A stretch of 64,000 bases of DNA. Origin: Pseudomonadota bacterium (GTDB lineage: Bacteria > Pseudomonadota > Gammaproteobacteria > JAKBBU01). Numbering within the stretch: position 1 is the stretch's first letter; each line of letters begins with the position of its first letter. Of this stretch, positions 22,384 through 60,514 are shown in pieces. Position numbers and translations under genes: made by a program. The notes beneath the pieces are model-generated. The model saw only the letters and a list, made by a program, of their open reading frames with translations. It did no database searches and was not told where the DNA came from. The stretch is taken from NCBI GenBank assembly GCA_021808365.1, contig JAKBBU010000002.1, forward strand, positions 13,703-77,702, in the 5' to 3' direction.

Positions 22384-22419
22384 GGTCTGTTGACATCCAA
22401 GAGAACTTTTAGCTACATT
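22384..22419 (+). promoter_or_regulatory. Candidate sigma70-type promoter for the large NACHT gene (perfect TTGACA -35 at 22390-22395 inside a ggtctgTTGACA repeat copy; possible -10 TACATT about 18 nt downstream)
   Basis: Motif reading only; about 75 bp upstream of the RBS GAGGAG. Confidence 0.3.
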
Positions 22420-22491
22420 GTCAATGAAGCTGAATGACCGGCCGGAACTGCAATTTTGCTGGAAAGTCAAACAAATGTTGAGGAGAGTTTC

Positions 22492-25400
22492 ATGGAACAA
22501 GAAGAATTAGAATCAAATGAGGGTCCAAATATTATTGACCCAGAAAAGCCAGTTAAACAAGCACCTTCCCAAATTATCTTTTTTGATCTCCCTCCTTTCT
22601 CGAGTTACGAGAGTTTTGCAACCTATTTTAAAAACCGAGTCCATAAGCAAAAAGAAGTTGCTAACCCAGAAGAACTTGAGCTGTTGTGTGGATTTGCATT
22701 GCATCATCTGTCAAAAAACAAGCGCACGGATAATATTCTCGTATCTATTGTTCAACTCATCGGTTGTGGAAATGAAGAAATAACAAAAGCGGTTGTGACT
22801 CACCTGCAAACTATTACAAAAATCCCCCATGAAGGCCTTGCTTTGTTCCGTGCTTTGCGAACATTCACCAAAAATTTAGAAAAAACAAACCAACACGCTG
22901 ATCGAGTTTCATTAATACAACTATTTTTAGAGGTTATGAATGCTATTTCAGAATCAGGAAAACTCACAGGGACACTCTCTTCAAAAACCATATTGAATGC
23001 CTTAAACACTGTGAATGTACTGTTGAGCCATATGCTGAAGGAAAACATAACACTTAATGCTCATCAACGAAAAGCTCTATTAGAAACGAGTGAGAAGTTT
23101 GTTGTGAATCTGAAAAAAGACGCTGCTCGTTTTCCAAACCATTATTTTTTAGCATATCAAACAACAGAAAGGCTATCAGCTATTATAGCAATGGAATTGG
23201 AAAAAGATAAGAAAGATAGAGTCCAGAAACAACACGATGAAAAAATAGACATCGTATTTGACATCGTGGGCGCAGGAGGATCTTTTATAGCTGGAAGTGC
23301 TGGATTAGCCCTGGCCATAGGACTCTCTGCAGCCTCGCATGGTGCCCTTGCTCCTGTCCTGATCTTTCCAGCATGTGTCGGGTTTGGAGCTGGCATTTTT
23401 GGTGTTATAGTGTGCATCAAAAATATTAAAGGTCATTACAACACTTTAGAAAGCTTGAAAGTTTCGACAAATGTTCAAGCTTTAAAACTTCCTCTCAAAA
23501 CTGCCGAGGTACCGGATGATATACCTTTGAGATCTGAAAAACTCCATTTAACATCTCCATTACCCGACTTTGAGGATATGAAAGTTGGTACACTTTATAT
23601 TGAAAAAATCGAAAAAAATAAGAACAAAGAACTAGAGAAAGGAAAGCCTTATTTAGCCTATAAAGCAAAATCTGGCCAGAACAATGAAATTTTAATTTCA
23701 GGGACTATATCACGTGAAAAATTAGGTAATGACGCATTTAAAAATATCAAAGATAAACCATCATTAAACTCAATGAAGCAACAAATTCTTAATATTACCT
23801 TCGAAAGAGGCCACACCTGCTCTTGGGATCAAGTTTTAACAAACATTGAAAAAAAATTACACGACAGCTCCAGAAAAAATCAGCCTTCTTCTTGGGATAT
23901 GATGAATTTCGTGTATTGTTTGACACAACTAAGGCTCAGATCTAAAACAGCAACACAAAAAGTGGACCAAAGAATAAAAAATATTTTTAGCGAAATTTAT
24001 TCGAAATATATCACTTCAAAGAAAAACTCTCATATTAGTGCATTTATTCTTCACAATATTTTATTACTCCGTAATAAAAAGTTAAAAAACTATCCTTTAC
24101 GAGGCAAAATCACGCCGTTTCTTTTGGGAGATCCACCGCTGGAACCTGAGAAAAATGAACAAAAGTCAGTTTCTGAAACCCTTAATCGTTATAATGCTAG
24201 TCGTATTTTTGAGAAAAGTCTGGGTAAGCGAAAGCGTTTATATCAAGAGAGCGTTTTAAATCAAGATAATCAGAAAATTATTCCTGATATTAGTTTAAAA
24301 ACCCATTGGTTCAAACTATTCAAGTCGGATGAGTGGGTCGACAACGCTCTACAATTTTACGGATCGAATCAATTTGATTTAGCTGCTAGAGAGTTGTATA
24401 ATGTGAAACGTCGCATTTTATTGCCTAAACAAACTTCTCACTGGGCACGTGAGATTTATAATATTTTGATAAATACCCCTGAGATCAAGGGCCAGCATCC
24501 TCCAAAACTCTCTCATGAAGATAAAATTCATCAAATGCTATCAGAGATCGATGATACTTTGAGCCAATATTATCAAAAAGATATTGCCATCCCTTTGTTA
24601 CAAGGCTCAAGTAATAACACACTGGATAATTGCTACATTCACTTGACCTTAATCGACCGAAAAGAGCAAAAGCAGCATGAAGAAGTTCTTTCAAAAAGTG
24701 CAGTTGATGATGATAAAGAACAAGAGTATGTAAAAAATTACGAAGTATTGTACCAACAAGACTCTCCGATTGAATTAAATCAGCTATGGCAATCCGAATC
24801 CTATCACTTTCAAAAAATTGAGCACTCGCCTAAACATCTAGTGATTCGAGGACCTGCAGGGATAGGAAAAACCACGATGCTGCGCTGCCTTGCACTTCAT
24901 TGGGCAAGAACCTCTGAAAAGACACAAGAATCTTTTAAAGTTTGGCAGGTTCCACTGGATATTTCCAATTGGCGCGCACATTTTGCTCTCCTGCTTCATG
25001 TGCCTCTCCGAAAACTGTCAACATATACACCGCGTAATATGCATCTTCCTGCTTGGAATGATTTATCCCCAAATGGACGACGTCTTGCGGAGTTCTTTGA
25101 ATACCTTTATGGCAACTTACACCCCGAACACATCATATGGCTGGCACGTAGCTTATCGTCTAAACAAGAAAATGATCCTCGTATCCTTTTATTGTTAGAT
25201 GGCTTGGATGAAATTAGTGCTTTGTTAGAAGAAAATTTCGCCTCTGAATCAAACATAGTGGATGCCGTTAAGCAGCAACAACACGAAGACCGATATCATC
25301 TTCTGCAGAGTTTGTTAGATCATAAAAACTGGCTATTAACCACGCGCCCCCATCTCGCCGATCATCCTAAATTAAATCATCATGACACACATCATCTGGC

Positions 25401-27606
25401 ATTAACAGGGTTTAACTCGAACAGTAAGAAACACTATATTGAACAATATTTCCGTGCTTTCGAGGATGAGGAGAAAGAAAAGAAAATTGAACCTGTTTTA
25501 ACATGGCTCAATCAACCTCATTTGTACGAATTGACAGGAGTCCCGCTGCAACTTGAGCTCTTGTGTTATCTCGCCTCGAGAACAGATAACTTTCAAAGTT
25601 GGACTCAAGATCTTTCACTGACTGAACTTTATGCTGAGCTATTCACTGCACTCTCAAAACGATTTTTAGAGAAATATCCAAATTTTTTGGAAAATCATCC
25701 AAATTTGGGAAAGGCGAAACCCAATCCCAAAAAATTAAATAAAAAACAAATCTTCTCGCTTTGTCAAGAACCAATCATATGGTTATCTGAATTCGCCTTA
25801 GAAATGATGTTTGCAAAAGAAACGATTGGATCTTTTTCAAGTATGCTTTCGAAAACAATTTTTGAGGTAACCGTTAATCAGAACCTTGAACAAAAAGAGC
25901 GTATGTTTGAAGCTGCGTTTGAAAATTTTGGGGTGCTCACACCATATGATGCTGCAGCGGATGAACTTGACAATAAATTATATTATTTTCAACATTTGAC
26001 CTACCAAGAGTTTTTAGCAGCGTATGCCTTAGTACAACGGTTACTCGTGTGCTCAAAAAAAGAAAAAGATTTTTACATCAATAAAATTCAAAGTCCTTTT
26101 TATCATCGCATGCAGATTTTTATCGTCGGATTACTCAGTCAATCTGAAGTGACTGAAATTTTTTTACCGAAGTATGAATATCTTCAACGTCACAATATAG
26201 TGGATGCTTTACTAAAGGCGGCGATGAGACCGTTAGGAAATATAGAAGAATGGTCTTTCTTCAATGTATGTAGCATACTTCCACAACATCAAAAAGAAAA
26301 AGTTCATAAGCAGCACCTCTTCCATCTTTTAGATGCCAGTTTGCCCCTCGCTTTGGCGAAAGAGTCGTCCAGTAATGAAAAACTGATCTTGCCTCCCCAA
26401 AAAAACCTGATAGCGAAAGTGCTAATAGCATTCTCTACGAAAGAGATCTCAATTAAGGAGTCGCTGAATAATAAAAAAATACCGCTCTCGCTCCAAGAAA
26501 ATCTGCTGCGAAAAATAATAAGGGCGCTTGATACTGAATTGGAGAAAATAAGCTCTCTCCGTCTAAAGAATGAAAAATTCGCTAAGTCGCATGAGATGCA
26601 CCCTTATGGTATCTCCTTTCTGTCAAAACGCATTCTGCAAACAAATGAAGTTAAAATATCCCTAGAAAGGGCTTTGCGTTTAAATGCTGAAGATGCTTTG
26701 AAATTGATACAAAAGTTTGATTGTGCTTTGCCGGAATACCTGGAGAAATACTTATGCATCGCTACTGAATCCAACGACTTAAAGTTATGTGCACTTGCAG
26801 TACAGACCATTTTAAAACTTGGACGATACGCAAGTGAAGAAATTCAGCTCAAGTTGATAAATTACCTCCAGAACAAGGCATCTTATGTTCGCATATGTGA
26901 TGATGCCATCCTATGGTCGTGGTTTGCCCCTCACGCCAGTGACAAGTTTAAAACGGCATTAGGAAAATTTTGTAATGTGCAAGAACCCATCAACATCCAA
27001 ATAACCGCAGCCATGATCATCGGTGCGTTCGGCCGACACGCCAATGAAACGCTCCAATTCAAATTAGCAACGCTTTGTGAGGCGCCAGAACCTGATGTCA
27101 GAATCGCTGTCGCAAAGGCTATCGGAAACCTCGGCCAGTATTCCAGTGAAGAGCTCCAACTCAAATTAGTAGTATTGATGAAAGCTCAAGAGCCTAATGT
27201 TCAAAAAGCAGCTGCTAAAACTATCAAGCAATTTAAGGAAAAATGGCTTACCCAGACCACCAAACAAGCTCTTAAACAGCTGTACGAAGATGGGCTTCTT
27301 TCTAAAAATCTAGAATCTTCTGCTTTGCCGAAGGTTGGTTTATTTCCAAACCCTATTGTATTAAATACTCCTTCAAGGCCTCCCTCTGATAAAGCTGAGG
27401 ATGAGTCTTTTTTCCAAGAACTAACGTCTGATGCATTGACTTTATCATCGATTGGTTTAAATTCTGCACCAAAAACTTCCGCATCCTCTTCCTCTGATGA
27501 GGAAAAAGCAAAGGAATTTGAGCCTGACTTGAAAAAGTCATCGTCTTTTTCTGATGATGATGAAGATGAAGCCAGAAGAAAAGATCCTTCTTTTTATTTA
27601 TTATAA
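22492..27606 (+). CDS. Large STAND/NACHT-family NTPase with an N-terminal glycine-zipper transmembrane hairpin, C-terminal HEAT-like repeats and an acidic Ser/Asp/Glu-rich tail
   Basis: Start chosen at MEQEEL (GAGGAG RBS). Walker A RGPAGIGKTTML, Walker B ILLLLDGLDE and LLTTRP sensor motif define a NACHT domain. VGAGGSFIAGSAGLALAIGLSAAS...GFGAGIFGVIVCI is a two-helix TM segment. Repeated EELQLKL...(E/Q)EPNV(R/Q)...AAK(A/T)I motifs indicate HEAT/PBS-type repeats. Confidence 0.8.
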   Translation: MEQEELESNEGPNIIDPEKPVKQAPSQIIFFDLPPFSSYESFATYFKNRVHKQKEVANPEELELLCGFALHHLSKNKRTDNILVSIVQLIGCGNEEITKAVVTHLQTITKIPHEGLALFRALRTFTKNLEKTNQHADRVSLIQLFLEVMNAISESGKLTGTLSSKTILNALNTVNVLLSHMLKENITLNAHQRKALLETSEKFVVNLKKDAARFPNHYFLAYQTTERLSAIIAMELEKDKKDRVQKQHDEKIDIVFDIVGAGGSFIAGSAGLALAIGLSAASHGALAPVLIFPACVGFGAGIFGVIVCIKNIKGHYNTLESLKVSTNVQALKLPLKTAEVPDDIPLRSEKLHLTSPLPDFEDMKVGTLYIEKIEKNKNKELEKGKPYLAYKAKSGQNNEILISGTISREKLGNDAFKNIKDKPSLNSMKQQILNITFERGHTCSWDQVLTNIEKKLHDSSRKNQPSSWDMMNFVYCLTQLRLRSKTATQKVDQRIKNIFSEIYSKYITSKKNSHISAFILHNILLLRNKKLKNYPLRGKITPFLLGDPPLEPEKNEQKSVSETLNRYNASRIFEKSLGKRKRLYQESVLNQDNQKIIPDISLKTHWFKLFKSDEWVDNALQFYGSNQFDLAARELYNVKRRILLPKQTSHWAREIYNILINTPEIKGQHPPKLSHEDKIHQMLSEIDDTLSQYYQKDIAIPLLQGSSNNTLDNCYIHLTLIDRKEQKQHEEVLSKSAVDDDKEQEYVKNYEVLYQQDSPIELNQLWQSESYHFQKIEHSPKHLVIRGPAGIGKTTMLRCLALHWARTSEKTQESFKVWQVPLDISNWRAHFALLLHVPLRKLSTYTPRNMHLPAWNDLSPNGRRLAEFFEYLYGNLHPEHIIWLARSLSSKQENDPRILLLLDGLDEISALLEENFASESNIVDAVKQQQHEDRYHLLQSLLDHKNWLLTTRPHLADHPKLNHHDTHHLALTGFNSNSKKHYIEQYFRAFEDEEKEKKIEPVLTWLNQPHLYELTGVPLQLELLCYLASRTDNFQSWTQDLSLTELYAELFTALSKRFLEKYPNFLENHPNLGKAKPNPKKLNKKQIFSLCQEPIIWLSEFALEMMFAKETIGSFSSMLSKTIFEVTVNQNLEQKERMFEAAFENFGVLTPYDAAADELDNKLYYFQHLTYQEFLAAYALVQRLLVCSKKEKDFYINKIQSPFYHRMQIFIVGLLSQSEVTEIFLPKYEYLQRHNIVDALLKAAMRPLGNIEEWSFFNVCSILPQHQKEKVHKQHLFHLLDASLPLALAKESSSNEKLILPPQKNLIAKVLIAFSTKEISIKESLNNKKIPLSLQENLLRKIIRALDTELEKISSLRLKNEKFAKSHEMHPYGISFLSKRILQTNEVKISLERALRLNAEDALKLIQKFDCALPEYLEKYLCIATESNDLKLCALAVQTILKLGRYASEEIQLKLINYLQNKASYVRICDDAILWSWFAPHASDKFKTALGKFCNVQEPINIQITAAMIIGAFGRHANETLQFKLATLCEAPEPDVRIAVAKAIGNLGQYSSEELQLKLVVLMKAQEPNVQKAAAKTIKQFKEKWLTQTTKQALKQLYEDGLLSKNLESSALPKVGLFPNPIVLNTPSRPPSDKAEDESFFQELTSDALTLSSIGLNSAPKTSASSSSDEEKAKEFEPDLKKSSSFSDDDEDEARRKDPSFYLL

Positions 27607-27613
27607 TAGCGTT

Positions 27614-27636
27614 GTGGGTTAGCAAAGCTAACCCAC
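27614..27636. terminator. Hairpin (gtgggttagc-aaa-gctaacccac) between convergent genes; candidate bidirectional terminator
   Basis: 10-bp perfect stem with a 3-nt loop, located between the NACHT gene stop (27606) and the entericidin-like gene stop (27656). No strong U-tract. Confidence 0.4.
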
Positions 27637-27802: not shown

Positions 27803-27973
27803 GGTTTCCTCCTGAAGTGAGATGTTTTTAACCTACATTCGACAGTTATACCTGAGCAAAAAGAGCTAAGGCACTGAAGATAGAGATCTTTTTGCCGAAT
27901 TAGGTTAAGTATAGACCAAAAATCTGAATTGTCATGGGAGGTTTTCTTATCGGTTGGCATAAATTGTTCATGA

Positions 27974-28010
27974 AAATTGGGAGGTAGCCTCCCAATTTTC
28001 ACGATTTTTT
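27974..28010 (+). terminator. Orphan rho-independent-terminator-like hairpin (aaaattgggagg-tag-cctcccaatttt followed by cacgatttttt)
   Basis: 12-bp perfect stem with a T-run on the plus strand, but no annotated plus-strand gene ends here. Confidence 0.35.
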
Positions 28011-28087: not shown

Positions 28088-28374
28088 CAGGGCTATCGGG
28101 TTAAAAGTTAATCATTTTTGGTCTCGTCATCCCGGAATTTAGCGATTCTTCGTGCGTACTCGCACGTTAGAATCGCTTAATATCCGGGATCCAGTTATAA
28201 ATAAGATTTTTTCTTATGAAAAAATCCCTTTTTATTTTCCTGGATCCCGCCATAGGTATTATAAGTCTAAGTCGTTCTAAGCACGAGTACACGCAAGAAC
28301 GACTAAATTCCGGGATGACGAAGCCCAAAAATGTCATCTTTTCGAAAAATGATTAACTTTTAACCCGATAGCCC
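28088..28374. repeat. About 290-bp composite palindromic element (outer 32-bp inverted repeats cagggctatcgggttaaaagttaatcattttt plus two internal hairpins containing cccgg(g/a)at and gagtac(a)cgc cores)
   Basis: Read directly. Partial copy at 36980-37083; shared cores at 15199-15423 and 35719-35847. Confidence 0.6.
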
Positions 28375-28397
28375 TGGGCACCAAAAGGACAAAAGCA

Positions 28398-28796
28398 ATG
28401 AACCTTCAATTTCTTGAAAATGCCATTATCCGACTTGACGAGGGTCTAGCACGCTATCATCAAGATACCAACGATACACAAATTCGGGATGGACTTATTC
28501 AGCGTTTTGAATTTACTTATGATCTAGGCTACAAAACGCTCAAACGATATCTTGAGTCAGTATCAGCCACACCTTCTGAATACGATAGTATATCTTTTGC
28601 TGACCTTATTCGCAGTGCAAATGAGCAAGGTCTCTTGCTTGGAGATTGGCCAAAATGGCGGCAATATCGTCATCTGCGAAATCAAACCAGCCATACTTAT
28701 GATGAAACAATTGCACTTTCAGTAGTTAAGCATATTCCAGAATTTTTACAAGAAATTGTTTTTTTACAAAATAAATTGCGGGAGAATTTAACGTGA
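28398..28796 (+). CDS. HEPN-domain nucleotidyltransferase substrate-binding protein (HI0074 family; HepT-like toxin)
   Basis: QRFEFTYDLGYKTLKRYLE family signature and an RNQTSHTYDE HEPN R-x4-6-H motif. Confidence 0.8.
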   Translation: MNLQFLENAIIRLDEGLARYHQDTNDTQIRDGLIQRFEFTYDLGYKTLKRYLESVSATPSEYDSISFADLIRSANEQGLLLGDWPKWRQYRHLRNQTSHTYDETIALSVVKHIPEFLQEIVFLQNKLRENLT

Positions 28797-55701: not shown

Positions 55702-57045
55702 TTAAAAAACAAACTGATTGGTTAGCTCTGAAAAATCTTTTTTATCGCCCGTTTTCTCTGGAAAGTCCAATAATAAACTCAATTCATTTGTATTTTTTAT
55801 AAGCATTTTTACATCTTCTTTGAAATTTGGATCAAGTTGCTCTGGGGGAGTGTCCTTAATTTTTTGCTTCACTCGTTCTATCAATATGCTCATTGTATTG
55901 AGATCTTGTGCTGTTGAAGAAGGTGGGGAATTTGGTGGTGATGGAAAATTTGATGGTAAAGAATATACGAATCTGTTTAAATTTTGACCAACAAAGGCTA
56001 GCTGAGTAGCAGGTGATATGTTATTATTATTTGCTCTAGAGCACCCAAGGTTAATGTTCTGAATCTCACTTTTCCTAACTGCAACTGCCGCCTCCAATTC
56101 CTGATGATTCCAAGAAACCCCCATATTCGACTTTATTGGGAAAAAGTTCTTTTTGTTTGCAATATCTTTAATATTTAGTCTTGATAACTTTATTTCGGAA
56201 CAATTTACTTCACACTCTTGCGGTCGTTTTTCAAGCTCATACATTCCTTTCACTATTGGTAAAGCTTGCGGATAAAGAATATCAATAGTCACTGATTTTT
56301 CTCGAGTTAACGCTAAAAGCCCGCCATATTCTTCACTAAGGTATTGTCTAACCAACTCATTGTCACGTTTGTTTTTAGTAGAGTCATCTTTTTCTGATAG
56401 TTTTATAATTGCTTCTTTTCTTGCCTCAAAAGGTACTGCAACTTCGGATCTTCCCTCATCAAGAAACCTCAAGAAATCTTCTTTTCCTTGTTTAAAACCG
56501 TCCAAGGCCATAATATCTTTCCAGGATAAAAAAACTAGTTCGACCTGTTCTAAATCTACGCCCCTATTTTTAAATATTTCTTTAATCAATGGAATATATT
56601 GTTCATCCCAATTATTTTCAAGATTATCTAATAATGCAAGCACTTCAGGATCATTAACATCTTTTTCTAGAGCCGCAGCAAGATTCCAACGTTGAAGTTG
56701 ACTTGTTTTAATAAAGACTATTTTTTTTATTTTTTTTGATAGATCTAATTCTTCAGAGTCTTCTGACTGTTGAGAAATAATAAGCGAAGCAAAAAGATCG
56801 GCAGTTGCGCGAATAAAGTTTTTATGTGAATGTGTTTTGCCACTTCCAACAGGCGGCGAGCCAAAGTCGTTTTGATATTTTGGTGTGAAATTCTCCATGC
56901 ATTCGCGCCATTCAAAACTAATAAGCGCGTGCAGTTCAGATGGACAATTGTGACGTTTTAAATTTGGGTGATTTTCTTTAGAAAACTCAGTAATCGTTGC
57001 AATAGTAACTTGTTGTTCTTGAATTGTAGTCAACTGCTCTTTCAT
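55702..57045 (-). CDS. Hypothetical protein (447 aa) with a Pro/Ser-rich segment; no recognisable domain
   Basis: Long intact ORF with a GGAGG RBS. Only a weak P-loop-like GSPPVGSGKT motif. Confidence 0.55.
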   Translation of the reverse strand: MKEQLTTIQEQQVTIATITEFSKENHPNLKRHNCPSELHALISFEWRECMENFTPKYQNDFGSPPVGSGKTHSHKNFIRATADLFASLIISQQSEDSEELDLSKKIKKIVFIKTSQLQRWNLAAALEKDVNDPEVLALLDNLENNWDEQYIPLIKEIFKNRGVDLEQVELVFLSWKDIMALDGFKQGKEDFLRFLDEGRSEVAVPFEARKEAIIKLSEKDDSTKNKRDNELVRQYLSEEYGGLLALTREKSVTIDILYPQALPIVKGMYELEKRPQECEVNCSEIKLSRLNIKDIANKKNFFPIKSNMGVSWNHQELEAAVAVRKSEIQNINLGCSRANNNNISPATQLAFVGQNLNRFVYSLPSNFPSPPNSPPSSTAQDLNTMSILIERVKQKIKDTPPEQLDPNFKEDVKMLIKNTNELSLLLDFPEKTGDKKDFSELTNQFVF

Positions 57046-59173: not shown

Positions 59174-60514
59174 TCAAAATCTAGGACTATATTCCAAACT
59201 AATGTGATCTTCGCCTCTACCAATTGCAATAGGATCTATCGTATCTTGAGATTGAGCATGCGGTTTAGCTTGGTAACAAAATGCTAAAAAATAATGGGCA
59301 GTTAACATAAATGCCATAAAACCCATCATCCAATTATAGGGTGAATCAAACCAACTATCTTCTGTCGTTTGAAACTCTTGAGCGGTACTTTTAAATAAAG
59401 TAGCCATCACAACAAAGAGAGGAAAGAAAAAAGAAATGATCTCCCCAAACGCAGCGCTCCATGATATTGATGTATTCCGTGATGGCTTTTCATAATATGA
59501 AGGTGGTGACCATAGGGATAAAGCCACTAATTCCTTCTGCACTAATTCTTCTTCTGGATCAGGAGGAGCAATCAGCTTTTTTTTCGCTTTTCCTTGATAA
59601 ACTTTGAAATTGAGCACAGTGTAAACCACGAGAAAGGGCATGGTGAACACACTGATGAGTCCAGTAAGCAAAGGATACCCTGACTCTAATAATGAGGTAA
59701 GAGGCGAAATTATATTTTTGCCATAGAGCACAAGGTTGGTTAATGTATAGAGACCAACAGCAAGATTGACTGTTTTTTTACCGACTTCATACCCAAAGAG
59801 TTTAAATGCACCTCCTTTTTTAGGATCACGATTTGAAAGAAAAGCATAGGTCGCAATCAGAACACCAAAAAGAGCAACTATAGCAAAGTTCAATGCAATG
59901 ACACTCGAAACAACTAATGTGCCTTTTGAGGCAGTTTCATCGTTGACAAAATCATCAATATCAATGTACTCAAAAAAAGCGTTTAAGCTTTTTTCTATAA
60001 CTTGCTGTGTAAAATCATAGAGCGATAAAACTTGGATCCCCGATTTGTAAAATGATCCCAAAGTTGAAACAATATTATAAACAAAAGTATCCATGAGCCA
60101 TTTTAAAAGAGGAGAAATTTTTCCTTTATAAAATATTTCTAAATCTTTTTGATAGGACCATGCTGTTGATGGAATAAACAAAAAAATAAGCAAAAATAAA
60201 TTAGTAATGAAAAAAACCTTTTGAAACCATTCAGGAGAAGTAAAATTCAATAATTCCTGCAAATTATCGGCGGCATTCTCTGCAGCGCTGTCAATACTGT
60301 CGAAATAAAGTCCGGCTTGAAAAATACCTAATAGCATACTCGTGACAAAATTGACAGGCGTTGAAACCAGCGGGGAAAGTACATGGGTGACTGATTTCTT
60401 GATTGTTTTTACCGAAGGTACAAAACCAAAAAAACCTGACATAAAAAATTCTTCTTTATTTTTGGGATCGCGTCTTACATCAAGATGCGTTATAGTTCGA
60501 TTTATGATTGGCAC
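59174..60514 (-). CDS. Hypothetical multi-pass membrane protein
   Basis: 446-aa ORF with several hydrophobic helices. Start uncertain (an alternative MSGFF start lies at about 60442). Confidence 0.45.
   Translation of the reverse strand: MPIINRTITHLDVRRDPKNKEEFFMSGFFGFVPSVKTIKKSVTHVLSPLVSTPVNFVTSMLLGIFQAGLYFDSIDSAAENAADNLQELLNFTSPEWFQKVFFITNLFLLIFLFIPSTAWSYQKDLEIFYKGKISPLLKWLMDTFVYNIVSTLGSFYKSGIQVLSLYDFTQQVIEKSLNAFFEYIDIDDFVNDETASKGTLVVSSVIALNFAIVALFGVLIATYAFLSNRDPKKGGAFKLFGYEVGKKTVNLAVGLYTLTNLVLYGKNIISPLTSLLESGYPLLTGLISVFTMPFLVVYTVLNFKVYQGKAKKKLIAPPDPEEELVQKELVALSLWSPPSYYEKPSRNTSISWSAAFGEIISFFFPLFVVMATLFKSTAQEFQTTEDSWFDSPYNWMMGFMAFMLTAHYFLAFCYQAKPHAQSQDTIDPIAIGRGEDHISLEYSPRF

Follow-up and report, generated by a model that had tools for sequence, protein, structure and literature searches.

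The 64-kb window analyzed here, that is, the whole 64,000-nucleotide (nt) stretch of contig JAKBBU010000002.1, carries a gene for a 1,704-amino-acid (aa) protein that is a bona fide NACHT/STAND NTPase with an intact switch. HEAT repeats and an acidic tail follow the NACHT module, and a 670-aa N-terminal module (N-module) precedes it. The general design of the protein is already known, but the N-module is a new, previously unnamed element. Judged by its distribution, it is a shuffled unit that is exchanged among NACHT proteins and behaves like the effector modules of bacterial proteins resembling NOD-like receptors (NLRs). The shuffling is the most informative fact about this protein and had been overlooked in an earlier, sequence-only reading of the same DNA. 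We tentatively favor, at a little under even confidence, a single-gene NLR-like conflict or abortive-infection switch with a membrane-directed output. Below, P0002 to P0151 are relatives from the protein search, A1 is the N-module alignment, and A2 is the NACHT family alignment (P0002 to P0007 plus the query). The gene and its parts are the following.

22492-27606, plus strand: complete open reading frame (ORF) of 1704 aa, stop codon (27604-27606) included, with an ATG start and a GAGGAG Shine-Dalgarno sequence 6 nt 5' of it
22540..23241, plus strand: N-module part A, aa 17-250, all-helical and solenoid-like
23245..23433, plus strand: Gly/Ala/Ser-rich hydrophobic helical hairpin, aa 252-314, in two lobes (~258-283 and ~284-312)
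23434..23823, plus strand: Lys/Glu-rich variable insert, aa 315-444, absent from homologous modules (gaps in A1) and predicted to be disordered (predicted local distance difference test [pLDDT] 23-41)
23824..24486, plus strand: N-module part B, aa 445-665, helical, with a conserved closing motif TS-W-R-IY (aa 648-656)
24514..24837, plus strand: pre-NACHT region, aa 675-782, kept in P0002-P0007 (PYLL...CYI-LTLI...PIE-S-LW; alignment A2)
24838..26256, plus strand: NACHT module with nucleotide-binding, helical, and winged-helix domains, from Pfam, PDB profile search, and AlphaFold/Foldseek
24850-24876, plus strand: Walker A motif GPAGIGKTT, aa 787-795
25186-25212, plus strand: Walker B motif LLLLDGLDE, aa 899-907
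25333-25350, plus strand: sensor motif LLTTRP, aa 948-953
26257..26697, plus strand: helical linker between NACHT and HEAT, aa ~1256-1402, poorly modeled (pLDDT <50 beyond model residue ~617)
26698..27291, plus strand: HEAT/PBS-lyase-type repeats, about five units of ~34 aa, aa ~1403-1600, from Pfam and repeat register
27292..27603, plus strand: C-terminal low-complexity tail, aa 1601-1704, with 20 Ser, 20 Asp plus Glu, and a net charge of -8
27487-27585, plus strand: acidic tail string, aa 1666-1698

The Pfam NACHT profile (PF05729) matched aa 783-989 with 58.9 bits against a gathering cutoff of 26.7, and the Walker A, Walker B, and LLTTRP motifs lie where the sequence-only reading had placed them. 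The identity of the module was confirmed by Pfam, profile search, and AlphaFold/Foldseek. The key residues are K793 of Walker A, D903 in the Walker B sequence DGLDE, R952 of sensor 1, and H1168 in the winged-helix sequence YYFQHLTYQEF; all four, together with D906 and E907, are invariant in seven of seven family members. Both the DGLDE form of Walker B and the GxxxxGK[ST] form of Walker A, by which the NACHT clade is defined, are present, D[GAS]hDE being the Walker B signature diagnostic of NACHT within STAND NTPases (Kibby et al., bioRxiv 10.1101/2022.07.19.500537). A PDB search with a profile built from the query plus its six nearest relatives returned animal NLR chains only, led by NLRP3 (6e-18) and followed by NLRP14, NLRP1, and NOD2. 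For an AlphaFold model of aa 675-1380 (predicted template-modeling score 0.70, core pLDDT 75-90), the top 50 Foldseek matches were all animal NLR NACHT modules, with NLRP3 at 2.7e-12 and a target-normalized template-modeling score of 0.60, and the matches to NLRP3, NOD2, NLRC4, and NLRP1 spanned ~550-690 alignment columns. We take H1168 to correspond to the histidine that contacts ADP in autoinhibited NLRs.

The protein thus shares its fold, domain order, winged-helix His, and sensor-1 Arg with the NACHT modules of the animal NLRP and NOD proteins (NLRP3, NLRP14, NLRP1, NOD2, and NLRC4), but the identity is only 15-20%, HEAT repeats stand in place of leucine-rich repeats, and there is no PYD or CARD. 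Recent transfer from a eukaryote was ruled out, as no animal NLR comes near the bacterial relatives (23-42% identity) in similarity, and the gene, with a GC content of 0.38-0.40, matches the window (0.40).

The closest relatives, P0002-P0007, are NACHT-plus-HEAT proteins from metagenome-assembled genomes (MAGs) of uncultured Gammaproteobacteria, annotated only as "Gammaproteobacteria bacterium" (e.g., MBY0543937.1 and MBY0544530.1, annotated as "HEAT repeat domain-containing protein"). They are 36-42% identical to the query over the pre-NACHT, NACHT, and helical domains (aa 675-1200). Homology to them begins at the pre-NACHT region (matches start at query aa 675-706), the alignment opening at query aa ~675, which corresponds to residues ~30-70 of the relatives. 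They share with the query the motifs GVPLQLELLC (aa 1016-1025, in the NACHT module), YYFQHLTYQEFLAA, and PFYHRMQ-F, and the same type of HEAT repeat, which forms the long arrays of P0003, P0005, and P0007; they differ in that these arrays are much longer and nearly identical and in that both the N-module and the acidic tail are absent. In the query itself, Pfam HEAT_2 scored 36.8 bits (cutoff, 27.7) and Pfam HEAT 23.3 bits, so the HEAT repeats postulated earlier are indeed present, although about five units rather than six are recognizable (aa ~1420-1600). One close relative, P0006, adds TPR and a C-terminal Ulp1/RickCE-like peptidase at aa ~1658-1758 (Peptidase_C48, 24.1 bits, above the cutoff).

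More distant relatives combine NACHT with other partners: P0010 is NACHT plus Ank plus patatin, with the patatin at the extreme C-terminus; P0011 is TIR plus AAA plus NACHT plus HEAT; P0012 is TIR/SEFIR, a strong transmembrane (TM) segment, NACHT, and HEAT; and P0013 and P0014 are again NACHT plus HEAT. Among the next 37 relatives, 21 have HEAT and 7 have TIR. Within this clade, NACHT plus HEAT is the prevailing architecture. Repeat sensors of the HEAT type and TM regions both recur, moreover, among the classes listed for bacterial NACHT proteins (Kibby et al., bioRxiv 10.1101/2022.07.19.500537), and a 2026 survey of STAND proteins lists TM among Avs-fused effectors. Because of these published classes, the makeup of the clade, and P0012, the combination of TM, NACHT, and HEAT is a design already described, and the proposal that it is an undescribed family is overstated.

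As a full-length protein, the query is rare. A word-indexed homology search with the complete sequence recovered the query only, which forms one cluster at 90% identity. The similarity to the nearest homologue (~41% identity) is confined to the NACHT module. In a scan of GTDB species representatives with the NACHT alignment, the best among the matches listed was a Mycoavidus MAG at 25% identity and the close family was not among them, while a metagenome scan with alignment A2 gave only relatives of ≤30% identity and one with alignment A3 gave no match. Among 72,556 plasmids, the sole match was the giant NACHT protein of "Candidatus Megaera polyxenophila" (WP_282487231.1). The giant proteins of "Ca. 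Megaera" and of the Mycoavidus cysteinexigens MAG are the nearest named bacterial NACHT modules (23-25% identity) and, like the query, are very long single proteins, but they are distant and come from other bacterial classes, "Ca. Megaera" being an alphaproteobacterium and Mycoavidus a betaproteobacterium. Both are endosymbionts of eukaryotes. The "Ca. Megaera" protein (2,536 aa) is encoded on plasmid NZ_CP104168.1 (locus L050, 7761-15371), where it is flanked by IS5 and IS200/IS605 transposases.

N-terminal to all of this lies the N-module, in which alignment A1 resolves helical part A, the hairpin, the variable insert, and helical part B. Part A has the conserved landmarks LPPFSSY (aa 33-39), CGN, LTG...S...N-LL, and FPNHYFLAY (aa 214-222). 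No match to the N-module was found in the Pfam, NCBIfam, or PADLOC families. The two lobes of the hairpin are joined by a turn of ~10 aa (SAASHGALAP) and have basic flanks at both ends. Their Kyte-Doolittle maxima of 1.76 and 2.39 pass the threshold, and on a Hessa-type scale the insertion energy is about +2.4 kcal/mol for lobe 1 and about +0.7 kcal/mol for lobe 2, which is marginal. A hydrophobic segment occurs at the equivalent position in P0015, P0020, and a protein encoded upstream of P0003 (see below), and the segment in P0015 is poorly hydrophobic (+4.6 on the same scale).

The sequence-only reading had described this region as a glycine-zipper membrane hairpin. A hydrophobic two-lobed hairpin is there, but the GxxxG repeats were overstated: there is one strict GxxxG (G297-G301), no canonical GxxxGxxxG in the hairpin, and no match to the Gly-zipper Pfam profile. 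The segment is nevertheless unusual in composition, with Gly, Ala, and Ser making up 43% of its residues versus 17% protein-wide, 13 small-xxx-small pairs, and a small-residue run at i+4 spacing in lobe 1 (G263-A267-G271-A275-S279). "Small-residue-rich hairpin" is the accurate label, for an element that lies inside a 670-aa helical module and is not a stand-alone TM anchor. AlphaFold places two helices at the hairpin with a pLDDT of only about 30, and, as far as can be judged from the model, the N-module would fold as a protein-binding alpha-solenoid rather than as a toxin.

The distribution of the N-module was traced by searching 1.84 billion representative proteins exhaustively with HMMER (query aa 1-1200), which gave 524 matches at E ≤ 0.001. 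In P0015 and its cluster mate P0151, the order of the parts is reversed: NACHT is N-terminal, and homologues of query aa 17-305 and 449-662 lie at the extreme C-terminus (BLASTP of the query N-module versus P0015, 1e-15 and 4e-07, respectively). P0033, a partial protein, is colinear with P0015 and likewise ends in the module; since it is only 22-34% identical to P0015, the permuted order exists in two divergent lineages. P0020 carries the N-module (BLASTP, 2e-23 and 6e-11) with neither a Pfam domain nor a Walker A motif; because its alignment begins at query aa ~121, its true N-terminus is uncertain. The module is absent from the closest NACHT relatives, P0002-P0007, but next to one of them it probably exists as a separate gene. 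At locus L044 (JAIELR010000005.1, GCA_019752835.1), a co-oriented gene at 224-2848 encodes an 874-aa protein and ends 24 nt 5' of the NACHT-HEAT gene of P0003. This protein matches the N-module alignment (hhalign probability 71%, E = 3.6e-5, 158 columns) and has its landmarks in N-module order (GN..ITKAV, YPGYYFL, a Lys-rich linker, and a 34-residue hydrophobic segment with a Kyte-Doolittle value of 2.07), the YP-YYFL-type motif being common to both; the profile match and the shared order suggest that it is probably an unfused homologue. ORFs upstream of P0007, considered for the same role, are not homologous to the N-module.

A unit that is fused at either end of NACHT proteins, is missing from close relatives, and probably stands as a separate gene near a NACHT-HEAT gene behaves like an effector module. 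In bacterial NACHT proteins, most effectors occupy the extreme N-terminus and a smaller share the extreme C-terminus (Kibby et al., bioRxiv 10.1101/2022.07.19.500537). Two neighbors of these genes may be recorded here. An Abi_2 (abortive infection) gene lies downstream of P0003 (L044, 7867-8784). The contig of P0151 (L043; JGI 3300034910, Ga0392248_111; 12 kb, 37% GC) carries a gene for an Arf-family small GTPase, a eukaryote-like domain, at 11570-12061 on the minus strand, and the remaining neighbors are orphans.

How such a switch might work can be sketched. At rest, the protein would hold ADP in an autoinhibited form, the winged-helix His1168 contacting the nucleotide. The HEAT solenoid would bind a protein ligand, for which a phage protein or some other invader- or stress-derived protein is the most plausible candidate, and nucleotide (ADP/ATP) exchange would drive NACHT oligomerization and cluster the N-modules. 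The clustered hairpins, which are marginally hydrophobic, rich in small residues, and bordered by basic flanks consistent with an N-in/C-in topology, may then insert into or reorganize the cytoplasmic membrane, so that membrane integrity would be lost or the infected cell would be growth arrested (abortive infection). The hairpin-bearing module would thereby be the output, in the place where relatives carry TIR, and the acidic tail would be an unstructured appendage, perhaps with a regulatory role.

The placement and mobility of the N-module, together with the TIR-bearing relatives, support this interpretation. NACHT and HEAT are both present, the N-module occupies the effector position and has no recognizable toxic domain, a miniature inverted-repeat transposable element (MITE)-like sequence and a HEPN/MNT pair lie nearby, and Abi_2 stands beside P0003. 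Known bNACHT and Avs systems are similar in their tripartite layout, which the query appears to share, in a NACHT with D[GAS]hDE, in C-terminal HEAT-type repeats, in an N-terminal region at the effector position, and in having TM classes and relatives with TIR or patatin. They differ in that the query matches no PADLOC model for them, has an N-module of an unnamed family, and lies in no defense island, and the closest tested systems are from unrelated clades.

Several observations weigh against a conflict switch. PADLOC-DB v2.0.0 gave no bNACHT/Avs match, only weak P-loop matches (E about 3e-3, DinG and mad8), and this result does not support the bNACHT/Avs-type assignment of the sequence-only reading or membership in any validated defense family. 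Scans of viral contigs with A2 and A3 found no relatives. The N-module has no toxin or pore-former fold, its only structural matches being generic alpha-solenoids from a low-confidence model. The marginal hydrophobicity of the hairpin in the query and the poor hydrophobicity of its counterpart in P0015 leave membrane insertion uncertain. The neighborhood is core chromosome with no defense island (an O-antigen/rml lipopolysaccharide [LPS] cluster, glmS, lysS, lpxB, rnhB, hslUV, argS, fmt, and rsmB). Some hints are host directed, namely, the CE-clan peptidase of P0006, the Arf-like GTPase beside P0151, and the endosymbionts as nearest named relatives. Lastly, the strong acidic C-terminal block has no role in the model.

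The same hairpin could serve a quieter purpose. It might hold an NLR-like sensor or scaffold permanently at the membrane, or do the sensing itself within the membrane or the periplasm; both solenoids (part A and HEAT) would then bind partners, and the output would come from a separate protein or be regulatory. This seems to us rather unlikely. TM regions of bacterial NACHT proteins have been classed as likely sensing elements (Kibby et al., bioRxiv 10.1101/2022.07.19.500537), the basic residues bordering the hairpin at either end agree with a stable N-in/C-in arrangement, the predicted solenoid character of the N-module suits partner binding better than toxicity, and many relatives have TM-like segments N-terminal to NACHT beside a separate effector, such as TIR in P0012. 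However, the gene appears to be monocistronic and has no obvious partner, the hydrophobicity of the hairpin is marginal for a constitutive anchor (above all in P0015 and P0020), and a module that moves between N- and C-termini is more effector-like than sensor-like.

The C-terminus brings in a different possibility. The acidic Ser/Asp tail noted in the sequence-only reading is confirmed and is unusually acidic. The final 22 residues read SSSFS-DDDEDE-ARRKDPS-FYLL, with the acidic block (EDEDDD) at -12 to -17, SSSFS at -18 to -22, and FYLL at -4 to -1, and six Asp or Glu within seven residues of the last 25 aa make this the top value among the 50 ORFs of the window and 151 NACHT relatives. An acidic block in the last ~30 aa, small polar residues, and a hydrophobic end formally match the pattern of an E-block-type secretion signal, a pattern that is unspecific. 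The second strongest acidic block in the window (DMTDDDDQD...EFSRKY) ends a 442-aa coiled-coil-rich orphan ORF in the LPS/O-antigen cluster (11420-12748, plus strand), which has no Pfam or NCBIfam match.

Such a tail would suit a TM effector that a host-associated gammaproteobacterium translocates through a Dot/Icm-type type IVB secretion system (T4BSS). The protein would be parked in the inner membrane by its N-in/C-in hairpin, recognized by its acidic tail, extracted, and injected; it would then enter a host membrane, with NACHT-HEAT acting as an NLR mimic or scaffold. We consider this unlikely, although it is the main rival of the conflict switch. In its favor, the tail fits the signal and is the strongest such block in the sets compared, and further orphan ORFs in the window have acidic tails. 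Legionella TM effectors mostly have one or two TM segments, an N-in/C-in topology, short periplasmic loops, and a C-terminal signal, with an E-block in 65% of them (PMC11602083). The two-lobed hairpin with its basic flanks and ~10-aa turn, together with the tail, formally fits these features, although the insertion energy is marginal; moderate hydrophobicity of the hairpin is also what was reported for a subset of those effectors (PMC11602083). Association with eukaryotes is hinted at by the Ulp1/RickCE-like peptidase of P0006, the Arf-like GTPase beside P0151, and the Mycoavidus and "Ca. Megaera" relatives, and NACHT/NLR appears in the domain key of a figure on predicted effector candidates of a Legionellales-related symbiont.

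Other evidence points away from translocation. The sequence-only reading had assumed a member of the Legionellales, but LysS identifies the organism as a deep gammaproteobacterium only: its named relatives (Sedimenticola, Thiohalophilus, Thiodiazotropha, and others) are all 66-69% identical, and none of the top 120 LysS matches is from the Legionellales. No Dot/Icm (T4BSS) gene was found in the 64-kb window or in the few kilobases readable beyond each end. The acidic block is absent from P0002-P0007 and is hence not a family trait. No NCBIfam or Pfam effector family matched the protein, TIR/HEAT architectures of the kind usual in intracellular conflict systems prevail in the wider clade, and acidic Ser-rich tails are common as low-complexity sequence. 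Compared with the Legionella T4BSS TM effectors SidF, LegC2, LegC3, and Ceg4 (PMC11602083), the query is alike in being a large orphan protein with a two-segment hairpin, a predicted N-in/C-in topology, a short loop, and an E-block-like end, but it has no sequence homology to any known effector. A bolder version, which we likewise hold to be improbable, is that of a bacterial NLR mimic stored in the inner membrane and injected as a TM effector, its NACHT oligomer forming on the host membrane, in a family of uncultured low-GC gammaproteobacterial symbionts that also has CE-clan peptidase fusions. To our knowledge, a NACHT module is not a feature of characterized Legionella effectors. The sequence does not discriminate between a defensive role in the bacterium and injection into a host cell.

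Turning to the gene itself, an identical 1,704-aa protein was called on 13 contigs of independent NCBI, ENA, and Logan assemblies, so an assembly chimera or artifact as the source of this long fusion was ruled out. The ORF is open through 5.1 kb with all catalytic residues kept; an alternative in-frame TTG start lies at 22456. With glmS pointing away from it on one side, a 47-aa entericidin-like gene pointing toward it on the other, and no co-oriented partner gene, the gene appears to be monocistronic. Sigma-70-like sites near it are no more numerous than in shuffled sequence, and the one listed below is a consensus match only. Directly 3' of the stop codon is a 10-bp stem-loop (GTGGGTTAGC-AAA-GCTAACCCAC) at 27612-27634 without a T-run, and a 14-bp terminator-like hairpin lies further 3' at 27971-28001. 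The surrounding features are as follows.

22390..22419, plus strand: sigma-70-like promoter match, TTGACA-18-TACATT, 10/12 positions, ~70 nt 5' of the start codon
27662-27802, minus strand: gene for a 47-aa lipoprotein of the entericidin EcnA/B family (Pfam, 34.3 bits), convergent with the NACHT gene
28088-28376: MITE-like element of 289 bp, present once in the window, whose terminal inverted repeats (32 nt) are perfect and which contains an inner, imperfect inverted repeat of 48 nt
28398-29125, plus strand: HEPN/MNT toxin-antitoxin pair ~0.8 kb 3' of the NACHT gene, made up of a HEPN-type NTase_sub_bind gene (132 aa) and a nucleotidyltransferase (MNT) gene (110 aa) with an overlap of 4 nt

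Rfam matches to plant microRNA hairpins at the MITE-like element were far under the gathering scores and were set aside as chance. Beyond both ends of the window, the few readable kilobases are also housekeeping, including parC and the gene for PBP1A. The lysS gene (29144-31368, minus strand) is preceded by an Asp/Asn beta-hydroxylase-family gene, in the place held by prfB in the two nearest genomes (L046 and L047). Elsewhere in the window, two ORFs of ~446 aa (55702-57045 and 59174-60514, both on the minus strand) have no Pfam or NCBIfam match, the second encoding a multi-TM protein, and 33917-35686 on the plus strand holds genes for a 412-aa protein of the serine beta-lactamase family and, after it, a 158-aa protein with weak resemblance to aminoglycoside-2''-adenylyltransferase.

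These core surroundings bear on one further explanation, that the gene encodes a non-conflict STAND regulator or a housekeeping ATPase or is decaying and functionless, which we regard as very improbable. Only part of the STAND proteins are tied to defense (198 of 589 clades were classed as defense associated in a recent survey), and the neighbors here are core genes. On the other hand, in the nearest genomes (LysS 69-72% identical, lysS after prfB) no NACHT gene was found near lysS. A syntenic housekeeping ATPase, which the sequence-only reading had named as part of an outcome that would overturn its case, was rejected on this basis, and the NACHT gene is accessory, not core. Orthologues in syntenic positions are lacking and the family is rare, the Pfam scan of the protein found no DNA-binding output domain, and a frame that is intact over 5.1 kb, identical in independent assemblies, and conserved at every catalytic residue argues against decay.

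Overall, the N-module adds a new output or partner module to the bacterial NLR-like repertoire, a helical scaffold of ~670 aa around a weakly hydrophobic, small-residue hairpin. If it is a membrane-directed killing device, it would be a new effector type for STAND immunity; if the protein is instead translocated, it would be the first demonstrated case of an NLR-like protein delivered into a host. An injected NLR mimic, if real, would further be a living example of the pool of NACHT proteins in intracellular bacteria from which Kibby et al. propose that eukaryotes acquired their NLRs. The family is confined to uncultured gammaproteobacterial lineages, and animal NLR profiles readily pick up its NACHT modules, a point of relevance to the proposal that animal NLRs arose in bacteria.

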